Below, piece after piece: positions 1,214-30,593 of a DNA stretch of 32,000 nt. The translations under genes were made by a program, and so were the position numbers. Within the stretch, counting starts at the first letter, position 1; every line of letters begins with the position of its first letter. The DNA lies in the NCBI GenBank assembly GCA_965261025.1, contig OZ253438.1:540001-572000 (forward strand), written 5' to 3'. This DNA comes from Chlamydiales bacterium. GTDB taxonomy: Bacteria; Chlamydiota; Chlamydiia; Chlamydiales; SM23-39. A model generated the notes under the pieces. That model was given only the letters and a program-made list of their open reading frames with translations. It was not told where the DNA came from and ran no database searches.

Positions 1214-2305
1214 CTATTTCAGCAATTCTTCATATCGAGCTGACAACTTGTACTTGCGCCCCCTATTGGAAAAATCGATAATTGTAAGAAAGTCTTCTTT
1301 TACCCATTGAGAACAAAGAGCTGCACTTGTACGCGACTTATAACCAAATAGCTCCCCTATTTGATGACTTGTAACGACTTCAAATTGTTGAAATAATTCC
1401 AAAACCTTGCGTTGTTTAGGATCAAGTTTTTTTAATAAACTGCTTTGATCAGAAAAACCTTTTTCGCTCGCTTCTGACATATACTTCAAAACGTTTTCGA
1501 AAGAAAAAACCATCCCTTCAACAAAATATTCAATCCATTTTGTAATATCAGCATCCGCTCGTCCCATACAATAGTTATGAGACGTTCCAATACTTATTGC
1601 CTCATAATAAGCTCCCAAGTTACGAGCATAATATTCCTCTAATGAGTAGATTCCTTTTAAGTCATATTCACCTAGATATAAAATCAGCGTTGTAAAAAGC
1701 CTAGCTGTCCTTCCATTTCCATCATAATAAGGGTGAATAGTTGCAAATTGATAGTGAGTAATTGCAGCAATTAAAGGGCAAGGAAGGTCTTTATTGTGAT
1801 TAATCCAGTTTACAAGAGATACCATTAATTTATTAACATCCTTAGCTTCAGGAGGCATATAAATAATCGCTTTAGTTCGAGCGTCTCGAATTACATTCTG
1901 TCCATCACGGTATTTTGATAGCTGTACATTCTGCCTTCCATTAGCCATAACAAGCGCATGCAGGGTTTGAATATGTTTTTCTGTGATTTTTATATTTTTT
2001 GCCGTCCATTTCTCCACCTGCGTTAAAGCTATGTAATACCCCTTAACTTCATGCTCTTCTCGTTCTCTTCCAGGAAAATGTCCTTTATGCTTCACGACTT
2101 CCTGAATCTGATTAGGCTCAAGTTGATTGCCTTCAATCATCGTTGAATAATGTGTCGTGTACAAACGAGCTGTCTCCCTTAAAGAATTCAAAATCATTGG
2201 AGTCACAGGTAAATGCATTACTTTTTCTTTTGCAGACTCAATGCGCATAAGATAGGACATGACTTTAGGAGAAATAGTGTAGTTTGGCTTAAACTTTATC
2301 GGCAT
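1214..2305 (-). CDS. fic: Fic-domain protein (AMPylase-type) with an N-terminal autoinhibitory motif and a C-terminal winged-helix region
   Basis: The Fic active-site motif HPYYDGNGRTAR (residues 191-202, nt 1700-1735) fits HxFx(D/E)GNGRxxR. The Fic_N-type inhibitory motif STMIEG (residues 54-59, nt 2129-2146) fits (S/T)xxxE(G/N). The C-terminal roughly 70 aa (KQRKVLELFQQFEVVTSHQIGELFGYKSRTSAALCSQWV) looks like a wHTH. Confidence 0.9.
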   Translation of the reverse strand: MPIKFKPNYTISPKVMSYLMRIESAKEKVMHLPVTPMILNSLRETARLYTTHYSTMIEGNQLEPNQIQEVVKHKGHFPGREREEHEVKGYYIALTQVEKWTAKNIKITEKHIQTLHALVMANGRQNVQLSKYRDGQNVIRDARTKAIIYMPPEAKDVNKLMVSLVNWINHNKDLPCPLIAAITHYQFATIHPYYDGNGRTARLFTTLILYLGEYDLKGIYSLEEYYARNLGAYYEAISIGTSHNYCMGRADADITKWIEYFVEGMVFSFENVLKYMSEASEKGFSDQSSLLKKLDPKQRKVLELFQQFEVVTSHQIGELFGYKSRTSAALCSQWVKEDFLTIIDFSNRGRKYKLSARYEELLK

Positions 2306-2420: not shown

Positions 2421-2492
2421 CTCCGGATGCTTGATTCGAACAAGCGACCAATGGATTAACAGTCCACTGCTCTACCGCTGAGCTAATCCGGA
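2421..2492 (-). tRNA. tRNA-Asn (anticodon GUU)
   Basis: The reverse complement folds by eye as a cloverleaf: TCCGGAT-TA-GCTC-AGCGGT-AGAGC-A-GTGGA-CTGTTAA-TCCAT-TGGTC-GCTTG-TTCGAAT-CAAGC-ATCCGGA-G. All four stems are complementary and the anticodon loop is CT-GTT-AA. CCA is not encoded. Confidence 0.9.
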
Positions 2493-25452: not shown

Positions 25453-26493
25453 ATGAAATTTTTCTTCTTTTGTCTCAGTCTTATCTCTTTTCTATTTGCA
25501 GAGAGTCTTCCTAGAAAAGAAACCCTTGTAAAACCAAAAAAAAATGCCCCTCCCATGATAGAGGGATATAATGCTCCTTCTAGAATTGATCTAAGGTCTA
25601 GTTGGAACCTTTTTTTTGGAGGAGGAGCGCTTTACCAGATAGCAAAAGAAAGAGGGCTTGACTTCACGCTCTCTGATGTGACTTCTACTTCCACTTTAGT
25701 CTTCGGAAAAAAACTGGAGCCTGATTACAAATTCAAGCTCGGATTTAGTGCTCTTTTTGGGTTTTTTACAGATTTTGATAATTGGGATTTTCAGGCAGCA
25801 TTCTTTCGCTATCATCCTCATATTACCACTTCAGTAAACGCCCTACCCACAGGAGCTTTAGTTATGCGCTGGTTTTCCTCTTCTCCTAGGGCCTCTTCTG
25901 CTGTTTCTAGGTGGAATCTTCTATGGAATCAAGTAGATACAGAGATGGGGCGATCTTTTTTTGTAGGGAAAGAGCTTTCTATGAGGCCTTTTTTAGGTCC
26001 CCGCCTTCTTTGGGGAAAGCAAAGATATAAGATTTCTGCCTCTATTTCTGATTTAGACGGACAAGAGAAAATTTCTAGAAATACCAGCCAATATTGGTGC
26101 TTGGGGCCAAGACTTGGGCTTTGTAGTAACTGGCATCTTACCAAAAGTTTTACTATACAGGGAAAGCTGGCCTCTTCTTTCATTTACGAAAAAAACCGAG
26201 TTCACGCTGTTATCGACGATGCCACCACAAGCTCTTTTCAAAAAAGTTTTGATGTAAAAACCCTCTACCGTGAGATAAAACCCCAACTAGATGCTAGAAT
26301 AGGGATCCATTGTGGAACCTATTTTTCTCATTACAAATGGCACTTTAAACTTCTTTTGGACTATGTTTTCCAGATCTTTTGGGAAGAGAATAAGATGAGA
26401 GCCTTAGTGGATGAGCTAGTAGCTCAAACTGGGGCAAGCCCTGGAGCCTTAAGTATACACGGAGCAAACGTCTCCTTAGAATTTAGTTTCTAA
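25453..26493 (+). CDS. Secreted beta-barrel outer membrane protein, Legionella/Chlamydia MOMP-like
   Basis: The signal peptide is MKFFFFCLSLISFLFA/E. The C-terminus VSLEFSF ends in Phe, a beta-barrel targeting signature. Amphipathic beta-strand patterning is present. ALYQIAKERGLDF resembles the LYW.A.E.GL.Y motif remembered from that family. Confidence 0.55.
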   Translation: MKFFFFCLSLISFLFAESLPRKETLVKPKKNAPPMIEGYNAPSRIDLRSSWNLFFGGGALYQIAKERGLDFTLSDVTSTSTLVFGKKLEPDYKFKLGFSALFGFFTDFDNWDFQAAFFRYHPHITTSVNALPTGALVMRWFSSSPRASSAVSRWNLLWNQVDTEMGRSFFVGKELSMRPFLGPRLLWGKQRYKISASISDLDGQEKISRNTSQYWCLGPRLGLCSNWHLTKSFTIQGKLASSFIYEKNRVHAVIDDATTSSFQKSFDVKTLYREIKPQLDARIGIHCGTYFSHYKWHFKLLLDYVFQIFWEENKMRALVDELVAQTGASPGALSIHGANVSLEFSF

Positions 26494-26749: not shown

Positions 26750-27394
26750 ATGAAAAAATACTTTTTCACAGGGCTAGTAATCCTTTTACCCTTGACGGTG
26801 ACTATTGCCGTTGTCGTGTTCTTGGTTAACCTCCTTACTAAGCCTTTTCTTGGTTTTGTAAGCCATTTTCTCTCCCTGACTAAGTTACAAAACTTCCAGC
26901 TCTTCATGATTCCCCCAGAAAAGCTCATCCGCTATGGCAGTCAGTTTCTAATTATAGTGGGACTTTTTTTTATTACTCTTTTGCTAGGGTTAATTGGAAG
27001 ATGGGTCATATTTCGGTTTTTCTTCTCAATTTCTGACAAGATTATACAGAAAATTCCTTTAGTGAATAAAGTTTATAAAACTACGCAAGATATTATTAAA
27101 AATTTGTTTGCTTCGGATAAAAACTCCTTTAAGCAGGTCGTAATGGCTCCTTTTCCTTACAAAGGAGTTTATTCTATTGGTCTCATTGCGGGAGATTCCC
27201 CTGAAAATTGTAAAGCTTCCTTGCAGGCTTCTTTGGTTTCTGTCTTTATTCCGACCACTCCAAATCCTACTACGGGCTTTCTTTTATTATTTAAAAAGGA
27301 GGATTTAATCTTTATTGATATGAAAACAGAAGAAGCGGTCAAATATATCGTTTCTTGTGGGGTAATCATCCCTGAAAAAAAAGGAGAAGAATGA
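26750..27394 (+). CDS. DUF502-family membrane protein (paralog 1)
   Basis: MKKYFFTGLVILLPLTVTI, the P.VN.VY motif and the C-terminal IPTTPNPTTGFLLLF......IDM..EEA.K.IVS.G match the remembered DUF502/COG2928 pattern. Confidence 0.8.
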   Translation: MKKYFFTGLVILLPLTVTIAVVVFLVNLLTKPFLGFVSHFLSLTKLQNFQLFMIPPEKLIRYGSQFLIIVGLFFITLLLGLIGRWVIFRFFFSISDKIIQKIPLVNKVYKTTQDIIKNLFASDKNSFKQVVMAPFPYKGVYSIGLIAGDSPENCKASLQASLVSVFIPTTPNPTTGFLLLFKKEDLIFIDMKTEEAVKYIVSCGVIIPEKKGEE

Positions 27395-28017
27395 AACGCT
27401 ATTTTTTCACAGGATTGATCATCTTGCTTCCTCTTGCTCTAACTCTTTGGCTTTTCTGGTACTTGCTAGATCTTTTTACAGCCCCTTTTCTCCCTTTTTT
27501 ATTACAAAAATTCTCCTTGCACTACCCCTCTATCCCCTTTGATTTCATTATTTTTCTTTCTCGTTTAACTATCTTGTTTTTATTAACTCTCTTCACTTTT
27601 TTCTTAGGGATTATTGCAAGGTGGTTTTTTATTCGTTCCTTAATCCAGCTTACGCAGAAAATTTTTTCTAAGCTTCCTGTAATTCGCACTGTATATAGAG
27701 TATCCAAGGATATTATTAGCGCTTTTTTTTCAGAAAAAAAGGCAAAAGCTTTTCGAAACCCTATTATTATTCCTTTCCCAGAGGAAAATACTCATTCAAT
27801 TGGCTTTGAAACAGGAGTTGTCCCCTTTTGTTGCCAAGAAAAAATAAAAGACCCTTTAAAAACCGTCTTTGTACCAACGGCTCCGCACCCCATATCCGGT
27901 TATCTGCTCATGGTACCAGAAAAAAATTTAAAAAATCTTTCTATGACAAACGAAGAAGCCTTAAAATTTACTATTTCCTGTGGCCTGGTAACTTCTACGA
28001 ATCATTCCCCCAATTAA
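27391..28017 (+). CDS. DUF502-family membrane protein (paralog 2)
   Basis: MKRYFFTGLIILLPLALTLW, PVIRTVY and VPTAPHPISGYLLMV......LSMTNEEALKFTISCG are present. It has an ATGA overlap with paralog 1. Confidence 0.8.
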   Translation: MKRYFFTGLIILLPLALTLWLFWYLLDLFTAPFLPFLLQKFSLHYPSIPFDFIIFLSRLTILFLLTLFTFFLGIIARWFFIRSLIQLTQKIFSKLPVIRTVYRVSKDIISAFFSEKKAKAFRNPIIIPFPEENTHSIGFETGVVPFCCQEKIKDPLKTVFVPTAPHPISGYLLMVPEKNLKNLSMTNEEALKFTISCGLVTSTNHSPN

Positions 28018-28032
28018 TTTCCTTTAAAATCT

Positions 28033-29295
28033 TTAGGAAAGAATCTTTTGATCTAGGAAATTTCTTGGGATCTTCCCCATTTGAAAAGCAGCATAAAACC
28101 AAAGAAGAGAAACTATCCCCAACAAAATGGTAGAAAAAAGCAGGGGCTTTATAGAAAAAAAACTCGGAAAAAAAAGGAGGAAAAAAGAAGCAAGGGCTTT
28201 TGCACTTCTATAGGCAAAAACATCAATAAAGGCCTTTACCCGAAACTTTTCATCCAGAGGTAAAGGAGCGTATAAAAGCTCTCTTAATACCCCAAAGAAA
28301 GAGTAATCTACTGATTTTAGACTCACATAAGAATAGGAAACAGTGGAAAGGGAAGGGAATAAAAAAGTCATAAAAATATTACACCCTAAAAAAAGGGGGA
28401 TCATGCAATGGCCTACAGCAGGAGCTATCCAAGATAATAAAAAAATTCCCAGTAAAACCTGGAAGGAAGTAGAGACTAGGTTAGTAACAGATACTACCCT
28501 AGCATAATACTGAGTTCTAAAATCTAAATCTTGAATGGCACCTTCCAAAAAAGATCCAAACTGAAAGTCAATCAAAGCAACGGATGTTTGCATAGAAATT
28601 ACTAAAAAAAGAAGAAGAAAAAGGTATTTGGAAGAAACTATCTTTCCCACAACAGAAAAACCTTTGGAAGAGGCAGAAAAGAGATTTTTTCCTTGAGATA
28701 CCTCGCTCCTTCTATAAGCAAAGCGGTAAGCAAAAAATACAACCAAGTAAAAGGGAACTGTTAAAATCAATAATTTTTCTGATCCAGTATGAATTGCTAA
28801 AAAACCCGGAAAAAGACTGCCTATAACAGAGCCTACCCCTCCTGCTGCAAAAATAATTCCATATAAGCTCTTAGCTGAGGAGGAGGGTATAGTAGAATGA
28901 ATCATCGACCAGAGTTGTTTGAACATAAAAAGAATGTAGATATCCTTCCAGATAAAGTGAAAAAAAGAAATGCTGGGATAATCTTTGATAAACCAAAAGC
29001 TAATACAGCTAATTCCCATCACAAAACAGACAAAAGCCCGAAAAAATCGATAAGCCCCTATTTTCGGTAGCACCCAGTTATAAAAAGAGATAATCCCTAA
29101 ATTTAGAAGAAGGGAAAATAGCCATGCATAAGGGAAGAGTTTGGCAGAAAAATGGGTAATAAAAAAGGCATTGCTAGTGGGTCTGCTTACACCATATTCT
29201 GCACTGATGAAAAAACCACAAAGCATCGCAGCAAAAAAAAAGAACTTTTTAGTAGATATAAGTCCTTTGTAGTGTGCTTTTACCTGACTAAACAT
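28033..29295 (-). CDS. TLC (ATP/ADP-translocase / Npt-like) family membrane transporter, short form; substrate unknown
   Basis: There are about 11-12 TM segments. WKDIYILFMFKQLWSMIHSTIPSSSAKSLYGIIFAAGGVGSVIGS parallels chlamydial Npt ELWGSV.LSL.FW.FANEI....EAKRFY.LFG.GAN. YAPLPLDEKFRVKAFIDVFAYRSAKA parallels YIPLD.E.K.KGKAAIDVV..R.GKS. This comparison is from memory, not an alignment. Confidence 0.6.
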   Translation of the reverse strand: MFSQVKAHYKGLISTKKFFFFAAMLCGFFISAEYGVSRPTSNAFFITHFSAKLFPYAWLFSLLLNLGIISFYNWVLPKIGAYRFFRAFVCFVMGISCISFWFIKDYPSISFFHFIWKDIYILFMFKQLWSMIHSTIPSSSAKSLYGIIFAAGGVGSVIGSLFPGFLAIHTGSEKLLILTVPFYLVVFFAYRFAYRRSEVSQGKNLFSASSKGFSVVGKIVSSKYLFLLLFLVISMQTSVALIDFQFGSFLEGAIQDLDFRTQYYARVVSVTNLVSTSFQVLLGIFLLSWIAPAVGHCMIPLFLGCNIFMTFLFPSLSTVSYSYVSLKSVDYSFFGVLRELLYAPLPLDEKFRVKAFIDVFAYRSAKALASFFLLFFPSFFSIKPLLFSTILLGIVSLLWFYAAFQMGKIPRNFLDQKILS

Positions 29296-29297
29296 TT

Positions 29298-30593
29298 TTA
29301 CCCCTTGTAATTCTTCAGAGCCTCTAAAAGAAGCTCCTCGTAATCAGGAGAAAAATAAATCCAACTAGAACAAGGATTATTTACCTTGCCCAACAGCTCA
29401 GAACACTCTTTAGCTGTTTCTACCATAAGATGCTTTCTAGAAACAGGAAAACAAAGAGCTTCTTGAGATACAGACGGCTTTTGCTTTTCCCAAGCTACAA
29501 AAGAAGCAGGAATCCCTACCTTCTTACAAAGACTTGCAAAGGATTTCTCAGCCATAGCAAAAGATAAGGGCATCGCTTTAAATCTATGTTCTTTAGATAA
29601 AATCCTCTTCGCTTCTTCATACCCTTTTTTCTCAGGATTTTTGGCACACTGAAAAAGGGCAGATAACACTTCTGTATCTCTATAAGATAGAAAAGTTTCT
29701 ATATCAGTAAGATTTATTCCTTCGAAGAAAAAGGACAAAAACCTTTTCAGGTGAAAATTATATGCCTTCACCGAGGAGTATTGATAAACTCTTTTATGCA
29801 TAAAATGTCTAGCCAGTAAAAGAGCTTCACAAGACTCTACACCATTTTCGTTAATTCCCAAAGCCAACCCCCCTTGCGGACAAGGTAAAATACGAAGCAT
29901 TTCTATAAGCTGTTCATAGTCAAAAAGGCCATAGGCCACTCCAGTGCTTTTCGAGTCTCTCAAGAGATAATCAATTCGGTCGGCTCCAAAAAAATCTCCA
30001 GTAATGATATGGGAGACTATTTTTTCCCAAGGAGTAAGATGTTTTCCAAAAAACTGGTAATACTTTTTTTCTCCTATAGCAATCTTAGCTACATCCTCTC
30101 GAAAATCTCTATCTGGGAAAATTTGAGTAAACTCCTCCTGAATTGGATCGAAAACGGTTTTTAAATAAGAGCTATGGATAATTTGATAAGTCATCCACTC
30201 ATGTCCTTTTTCCCCTAAAAGCTCTTCTTCCGCTACATGAGAAAAAGGGGGATGTCCCAAGTCATGACATAAAGCTGCCAAACGGAGCACCTTTCTCCAA
30301 TAATGGTATTCTTCAGAGCCTTTTCTGGGGACTAGGTCAAAAATATCGGGTCTTACATTTTTACATAAATTATGAAAAATCCGGGTTGCAAGCTCCATTA
30401 CCCCTAAAGAGTGCTCAAAGCGAGTGTGGGTAGCTCCAGGATACACGAGATACGAAAGTCCTAGCTGACGAATATAATGGAGTCTTTGGAAGGGTTCTGA
30501 GCTAATTAATTTTTTTACAGAAGAGCCAAAACGGATAAATCCATGCAAAGAATCATAAATTTTTTTGTCTTTGGAAAGAAAATCCTTACCCAC
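29298..30593 (-). CDS. HD-domain phosphohydrolase of the SAMHD1 / dNTP triphosphohydrolase-like group (COG1078 type)
   Basis: IYDSLHGFIRF......EPFQRLHYIRQLG....YPGATHTRFEHSLGV, CHDLGHPPFSH and GADRIDYLLRDS..TGV are present. Confidence 0.85.
   Translation of the reverse strand: MGKDFLSKDKKIYDSLHGFIRFGSSVKKLISSEPFQRLHYIRQLGLSYLVYPGATHTRFEHSLGVMELATRIFHNLCKNVRPDIFDLVPRKGSEEYHYWRKVLRLAALCHDLGHPPFSHVAEEELLGEKGHEWMTYQIIHSSYLKTVFDPIQEEFTQIFPDRDFREDVAKIAIGEKKYYQFFGKHLTPWEKIVSHIITGDFFGADRIDYLLRDSKSTGVAYGLFDYEQLIEMLRILPCPQGGLALGINENGVESCEALLLARHFMHKRVYQYSSVKAYNFHLKRFLSFFFEGINLTDIETFLSYRDTEVLSALFQCAKNPEKKGYEEAKRILSKEHRFKAMPLSFAMAEKSFASLCKKVGIPASFVAWEKQKPSVSQEALCFPVSRKHLMVETAKECSELLGKVNNPCSSWIYFSPDYEELLLEALKNYKG

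Follow-up and report, generated by a model that had tools for sequence, protein, structure and literature searches.

The window analysed in this work, a stretch of 32,000 nucleotides (nt) from a Chlamydiales bacterium (assembly GCA_965261025.1, contig OZ253438.1, positions 540,001 to 572,000 of the forward strand), carries a gene for a predicted HD-domain phosphohydrolase that is followed, after only 2 nt, by a gene for a membrane carrier of the NTT/TLC superfamily. Carriers of the NTT type are central to the theft of nucleotides and energy from their hosts by chlamydiae and other intracellular microbes. The reading that we prefer, with a probability of roughly 0.55, is that the two proteins share a role in the handling of (deoxy)purine nucleotides, as the products of a conserved two-gene operon. 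This reading is favoured because the junction between the genes is tight and persistent, the genes upstream of it are nucleotide-related, the related diatom carrier PtNTT5 is reported to transport purine nucleotides, and the carrier has the NTT fold. The identities of the genes, the placement of the carrier in its clade, the geometry of the junction and, among the loci compared, the conservation of the pair throughout the phylum are established here. Both genes belong to known families, that of the carrier being known but orphan, and they do not constitute a new kind of system; the phylum-wide conserved, near-overlapping pair is the first testable clue to the cargo of this orphan carrier.

On the minus strand of the window three open reading frames (ORFs) follow one another, i.e., those of a Nudix protein, the HD protein and the membrane protein, with these features in the direction of reading:

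31934 to 30723, minus strand: Nudix-domain protein of 403 residues whose C-terminal end is a hydrophobic tail; a spacer of 129 nt separates the gene from the HD start
30606 to 30601, minus strand: AGGAGA, a putative ribosome-binding site read from the sequence, 7 nt ahead of the HD start codon GTG
30593 to 29298, minus strand: HD-domain phosphohydrolase of the SAMHD1/EF1143/2HEK type, 431 residues, GTG start, TAA stop at 29298-29300
29306 to 29301, minus strand: AAGGGG, a Shine-Dalgarno-like motif read from the sequence that coincides with the last two HD codons and may act in initiation of the transporter
29300 to 29293, minus strand: gene junction, formed by the HD TAA, a 2-nt spacer AA (29296-29297) and the transporter ATG
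29295 to 28033, minus strand: carrier of the SnNTT4 clade, NTT/TLC superfamily, 420 residues, ATG at 29293-29295, 12 predicted transmembrane helices

The sequence of the junction is ...AAG GGG TAA AA ATG..., with 5 nt between AAGGGG and the transporter ATG. The original prediction, made from the letters of this DNA, had noted the 2 nt between the HD stop and the transporter ATG as well as the AAGGGG inside the 3' end of the HD gene; on the minus strand all its coordinates were confirmed, and the geometry fits the translational coupling that it had proposed. Both genes are probably carried on one transcript with coupled translation. Promoter-like and terminator-like consensus sites at the junction showed no excess over the shuffled expectation, and an Rfam scan found no RNA element there, its sole match being a distant tRNA-Asn; for these reasons an internal promoter, terminator or RNA element at the junction was rejected. 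Given that the genome is compact, a spacer of 2 nt is weak proof by itself; it is the conservation of the pair among relatives that places the HD-transporter junction above chance.

The relatives used to follow this pair were the best 80 of 243 matching stretches found in one scan of contigs representing one genome per species. All of them are chlamydial by title or misfiled chlamydia-like metagenome-assembled genomes (MAGs), and their neighbourhoods were compared by clustering all the ORFs in the 80 loci (designated by L numbers). In 73 of the 80 loci the transporter gene is preceded, on its own strand, by the gene of an HD homologue; one of the other seven has too little upstream sequence, which leaves 73/79 informative loci. 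The adjacency, originally seen in a single genome, is thus conserved in other Chlamydiae. The limits of both ORFs could be set in 71 loci; with start codons picked by a heuristic, the transporter begins at -64 to +12 nt relative to the HD stop in 54 of them. A 4-nt (A/G)TGA start/stop overlap is present in 28 of these 54 loci, and a 1-nt overlap in 7.

The order most commonly found in these neighbourhoods is a GT2 glycosyltransferase gene (-), then on the plus strand a gene for a CBS-less IMPDH/GMP-reductase-like (GMPR-like) protein, the HD gene, the SnNTT4-like gene and a malic enzyme gene, and finally a thiol peroxidase (Tpx) gene (-). The GMPR-like gene is separated from the HD gene by a median of 58 nt, a looser spacing than that of the HD-transporter junction. 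The HD gene is retained in 54/65 loci by a criterion that was afterwards considered too strict; the corresponding counts are 51/65 for the GMPR-like gene upstream and 35/53 for the malic enzyme gene downstream. The link between HD and transporter is the tightest and best kept of the neighbourhood, and besides these two genes none of the other ancestral neighbours is present within the 32-kb window. An association of SnNTT4-type carriers with HD proteins was not mentioned in the literature searched, which did not reach the primary SnNTT4 paper.

Some loci show other arrangements. An M48 peptidase gene stands between the two genes in L008, L016, L023 (L023:4700-5953), L026, L029, L033, L040, L046, L053, L054 and L073; ahead of the HD gene, these loci have one or two genes for amino-acid permeases. 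The carrier locus has no HD gene in L011, L013, L018, L059, L063 and L064. A GT2 gene is found divergently upstream in both chlamydiae and Halobacteriovoraceae; an ancient GT2-NTT4 link, with a role in nucleotide-sugar transport, was considered and dropped, since the two sets of GT2 proteins have no similarity at E<1e-3.

The original prediction assigned the membrane protein to the TLC family, and this assignment was upheld at several levels against unrelated families of the major facilitator superfamily (MFS). Pfam TLC (PF03219; TC 2.A.12) is matched by the C-terminal part of the window transporter with 25.6 bits (cutoff 21) and by 23/23 aligned family members (best E=1.6e-13); the score against TIGR00769, the model for exchangers of nucleoside tri- and diphosphates (NTP/NDP), is 29.3 bits and lies below the cutoff of 387.2. 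The homologues make up a large family of proteins with 385-431 residues, nearly all from chlamydial MAGs. The profile of this family aligns collinearly with the structure of Chlamydia pneumoniae NTT1 (CpNTT1; 9j3n, E=2.5e-15, residues 111-409 on 154-491) and with that of Arabidopsis NTT1 (AtNTT1; E=7e-15). An AF2 model of the transporter has 12 long helices, with a predicted local distance difference test score (pLDDT) of 86.7 and a predicted template modelling score (pTM) of 0.87. A Foldseek search with this model returned 9j3l, 9j3m and 9j3n (AtNTT1 twice and CpNTT1) as its top three matches, with template modelling (TM) scores of 0.75-0.81, above generic MFS carriers.

Within the superfamily, the closest reference sequence by BLASTP is SnNTT4 of Simkania negevensis (E=1e-86, 39% identity over 376 residues), followed by sequences from Poribacteria (E=1e-28) and Halobacteriovorax (E=4e-23) and by the diatom protein PtNTT5 (E=5e-10); canonical NTTs such as Npt1 and PamNTT1 are reached only at E about 1e-6. 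The reference NTTs of the BLASTP comparison, taken from the supplement to Major et al. 2017, also served for a neighbour-joining (NJ) tree, in which the window transporter falls within the chlamydial SnNTT4 clade and outside the canonical, PamNTT4-type and HEAT-type groups. The sisters of this clade are the sequences of Halobacteriovorax, Poribacteria and the diatom proteins PtNTT5/TpNTT6, which share 21-30% identity with the window transporter; the topology agrees with that of Major et al. 2017, where the SnNTT4 clade has the same sister groups. By these sequence comparisons the window transporter is a member of the NTT/TLC superfamily and an orthologue of SnNTT4, not an Npt1/Npt2-like protein. 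Orthology to PamNTT5, suggested by a homologue named 'nucleotide transporter 5', was rejected, since PamNTT5 (Q6MBI2) belongs to the canonical clade, has a BLASTP E of 0.003 and is separate in the tree.

SnNTT4 (WP_013943569.1) resembles the window transporter in its length and in the motifs AEY..P.SN, PYAWL, IWKD(I/V)Y, AKYLYG-like and IDVFAYRSAKALAS. Its gene in Simkaniaceae is also downstream of an HD gene; nevertheless, the M48 peptidase and amino-acid permease genes described above distinguish that locus from the window with its 2-nt spacer. In contrast, the canonical NTTs (C. trachomatis Npt1/Npt2, PamNTT1-3, PamNTT5, CpNTT1 9j3n and AtNTT1 9j3l) share the superfamily and the 12-helix fold with the window transporter but form a separate clade and are about 90 residues longer. 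The missing residues correspond to a loop of about 29 residues after helix 3, to about 10 and about 17 residues from two loops further on, and to the tail at the C-terminus. The original prediction was correct about the difference in length, but the protein is not a shortened Npt1/Npt2: because the whole SnNTT4 clade shares these deletions, a length of about 420 residues is the norm of the clade, whose members have about 400-430 residues, and not a truncation. Genes for canonical NTTs of about 505-511 residues were observed downstream of the NTT4-like gene, on the opposite strand, in L010, L022, L028, L030, L035, L036, L044, L045 and L050; in most of these loci they directly adjoin it, and the one at L028:7219-8754 scores 593 bits with Pfam TLC.

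Four charged residues of AtNTT1, K155, E245, E385 and K527, are taken here to be critical for nucleotide transport. The equivalents of two of them are kept: that of K527 is K354, invariant in the family, and that of E385 is D243. The other two are not conserved in the window transporter, where K155 aligns with W58 or a gap and E245 with K117, with D118 adjacent to it.

The HD protein was correctly recognised at the family level by the original prediction as a hydrolase of the SAMHD1 type. Pfam detects an HD domain (35.1 bits) and an HD_assoc_2 domain (29.5 bits), and the matches in the PDB are 2hek (E=2e-50), 9mr6 (8.5e-28), EF1143 (2o6i, 9e-27) and SAMHD1 (about 2e-23). The closest solved structure, 2HEK from Aquifex aeolicus, is annotated only as a hypothetical protein, and the closest characterised relatives are the deoxynucleoside triphosphate (dNTP) triphosphohydrolases EF1143 and SAMHD1. 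The motifs HTRFEH, HDLGHPPFSH, GHE, DRIDYLLRD and HKRVYQ line up with the catalytic residues of SAMHD1, and all of those compared (R164, H167, H206, D207, H210, H215, H233, E234, D311, Y315, D319, H370, Y374 and Q375) have identical counterparts. The metal-binding motif (H...HD...D) is complete with H61, H110-D111 and D205; the other residues of this set are R58, H114, H119, H131-E132, Y209, D213, H266, Y270 and Q271, and K312 of SAMHD1 is conservatively replaced by R206. These features make it a member of the SAMHD1/EF1143/Aquifex 2HEK family and likely a triphosphohydrolase of (deoxy)nucleoside triphosphates, (d)NTPs.

The HD protein differs from SAMHD1 in that it lacks the SAM domain, and its alignment to SAMHD1 and EF1143 covers only about the first 270-340 residues, leaving the C-terminal third (beyond about residue 290-340) unaligned. 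Allosteric site 1 of SAMHD1, to which we take D137, R145 and companion positions to belong, is partly conserved: Q36 is kept, and S31 and H39 take the place of D137 and R145. The score against the Dgt-type model TIGR01353 (42.9 bits) is below the cutoff of 152. The public call of the HD gene (P0124) has 416 residues and begins 15 codons downstream of the GTG. The form of 431 residues is preferred because the AGGAGA site is present and the relatives align from residue 1, the additional N-terminal residues being conserved; the public call is therefore probably too short, and the GTG form fits better.

A gene that appears nucleotide-related precedes the HD gene in both arrangements. In the window it encodes the Nudix protein, which matches Pfam NUDIX with 31 bits (cutoff 21.1) and has a complete Nudix box (GX5EX7REUXEEXGU), GGGADGEDVEAAAIREAYEELGF. 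In L001, the closest relative, with proteins 66-82% identical to those of the window, a Nudix gene occupies the same position (L001:3049-4359); the two Nudix proteins share just 24% identity (E=2e-7), against 82% for the neighbouring HD proteins, and both end in a hydrophobic, tail-anchor-like segment. The protein thus looks like a fast-evolving, membrane-anchored one. No Nudix counterpart was detectable at this position in the other loci compared. Most chlamydial relatives (L002-L080, e.g., L023:1103-2122) carry instead, just upstream of the HD gene and on the same strand, the GMPR-like gene, which is absent from the 32-kb window; its product of about 336 residues matches Pfam IMPDH with 303 bits and is collinear with GMP reductase models, below their equivalog cutoffs. 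Accordingly, the row of three nucleotide-handling genes described in the original prediction is real as regards the Nudix gene, its box and its strand, but as a trio it is restricted to the lineage of the window and L001.

In the reading that we prefer, the HD and carrier genes would form a bicistronic, translationally coupled operon ancestral to most Chlamydiota. Its first gene would encode a cytoplasmic enzyme of the SAMHD1/EF1143 family that most likely converts (d)NTPs to nucleosides and triphosphate, and the second an inner-membrane NTT/TLC carrier of the orphan SnNTT4 clade that would move a nucleotide-type substrate. Produced in fixed proportion from the same mRNA, the HD enzyme may trim or convert the pool of the carrier, probably a purine pool. 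Both the functional link between the two proteins and the nucleotide-type substrate of the carrier are what we infer from the arrangement and from the relatives of each protein. A more demanding proposal, which we hold to be rather far-fetched, is that the carrier is active only with the co-encoded HD protein, for example by taking up (deoxy)purine NTPs of the host against the nucleoside or triphosphate that the enzyme sets free, or by exporting these products. Under such obligate cooperation hydrolysis would drive net uptake, and SnNTT4 alone would be inactive in Escherichia coli because its HD partner is needed.

Several observations weigh against a shared role, and the main rival that they bring forward is inherited synteny without shared function. 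The HD protein would then be a housekeeping enzyme of the dNTP pool, unrelated to the carrier, and the two genes would have stayed together owing to slow rearrangement of chlamydial genomes and would overlap owing to the compactness of these genomes; this is possible, though on the whole unlikely. The conserved order also takes in the functionally unrelated genes for GT2, malic enzyme and Tpx; since malic enzyme and thiol peroxidase have no nucleotide role, part of the HD-carrier adjacency would be inherited gene order. Loci of the Simkaniaceae type accept the M48 peptidase gene between the two genes, and in a clade to which Anoxychlamydiales MAGs belong, the carrier is retained, conserved residues included, but its locus has no HD gene, the GMPR-like gene directly preceding the carrier gene. 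Outside the chlamydiae, the carrier genes at three Halobacteriovoraceae loci (L081-L083) have no HD neighbour and overlap or abut an M3 peptidase gene; an HD coupling beyond Chlamydiota was rejected on this ground, and the coupling is a chlamydial feature and not one of the whole transporter clade. Against mere synteny, however, the HD-carrier junction is the tightest and most conserved of the region, the pair has outlasted a rearrangement in which the window lost all its other ancestral neighbours, and each of the two arrangements has a nucleotide-related gene upstream of HD. By comparison, a reading in which the HD protein defends against phages by depleting dNTPs, with the carrier as a passenger gene, is very improbable. 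Depletion of dNTPs is a known strategy of defence against phages, and the HD protein gives a PADLOC dGTPase match of 44 bits and weak matches to anti-phage dGTPase models of NCBIfam; yet these are restricted to the HD motif region and far under the cutoffs (28.9 versus 400 for NCBIfam), and the vertical conservation of the gene, single-copy, syntenic across the phylum and in a housekeeping context, is unlike that of mobile defence islands. This reading was rejected, all the dGTPase matches being sub-threshold.

The nature of the cargo is a separate matter. In papers published from 2017 to 2024, SnNTT4, the only orthologue studied, is reported to transport no nucleotides when expressed in E. 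coli, and its substrate is called undetermined. This also weighs against the reading that we prefer, as does the retention of only two of the four charged residues of AtNTT1. It could mean that carriers of the SnNTT4 clade move some other, probably anionic, metabolite, on which the HD enzyme acts or to which it is unrelated; this possibility, which overlaps the other readings, is doubtful. The loss of the K155 and E245 equivalents and the strong divergence from canonical NTTs seen with TIGR00769 and BLASTP would agree with it, as would the presence of a peptidase gene next to that of the carrier in two unrelated lineages, an M48 gene in Simkaniaceae and an overlapping M3 gene in Halobacteriovoraceae. 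On the other hand, PtNTT5 of the sister group is reported to carry purine nucleotides, the structures matched best are those of NTT1 with bound nucleotide, and the neighbouring genes encode nucleotide enzymes. K354 and D243, moreover, match residues of AtNTT1 presumed to be needed for nucleotide transport. The original prediction had offered, for its part, the import of host nucleotides by a classical Npt-like carrier, for energy or nucleotide parasitism, and their subsequent dephosphorylation by the HD enzyme. The TLC superfamily and NTT fold of the carrier, the dNTPase-type HD enzyme and the conserved pair are consistent with it; even so, it is a hypothesis that the family does not imply and it seems improbable to us, given that the window transporter lies outside the Npt1/Npt2 clade, that related genomes have separate canonical NTTs, sometimes right beside the NTT4-like gene, and that the SnNTT4 orthologue is reported not to have imported the nucleotides tested. 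Hydrolysis of NTPs to nucleosides after import would, moreover, be wasteful in chlamydiae, which are not known to possess nucleoside kinases.

For the SnNTT4 branch, which the 243 matching stretches show to be widespread, the pair has a practical consequence. Because the carrier is paired with a SAMHD1-like HD protein and lies beside GMPR-like or Nudix genes, the candidate substrates are narrowed to (deoxy)purine nucleotides and the products of their hydrolysis, and the open question of the SnNTT4-type substrate becomes a specific experiment, in which the carrier is assayed together with the HD protein or its products. If the link is true, a module for the control of dNTP or purine pools would be added to chlamydial metabolism, and obligate cooperation would represent a new mode of transport plus hydrolysis for the NTT family; if it is false, these would be two annotated genes held together by synteny.

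Of the other genes in the window, those closest to the pair are two tandem DUF502 paralogues on the plus strand (26750-28017; 214 and 208 residues, with a 4-nt overlap at 27391-27394). These genes and the transporter gene are convergent, and only 15 nt separate the stop codons (28017 and 28033), where no terminator-like site was detected. Before them, at 25453-26493 (+), a protein of 346 residues that starts with a hydrophobic leader scores 80 bits against the Pfam family of the Legionella major outer membrane protein; it is probably a porin-like protein in the outer membrane of a chlamydia outside the Chlamydiaceae. A Fic/DOC-domain gene at 1214-2305 (-) adjoins the only RNA gene of the window, a tRNA-Asn (GTT) at 2421-2492 (-). 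The remaining large ORFs scanned encode housekeeping proteins, i.e., RecD2, MetRS, Ffh, RF1, PNPase, FtsH, a TilS-like protein and LptF/G.

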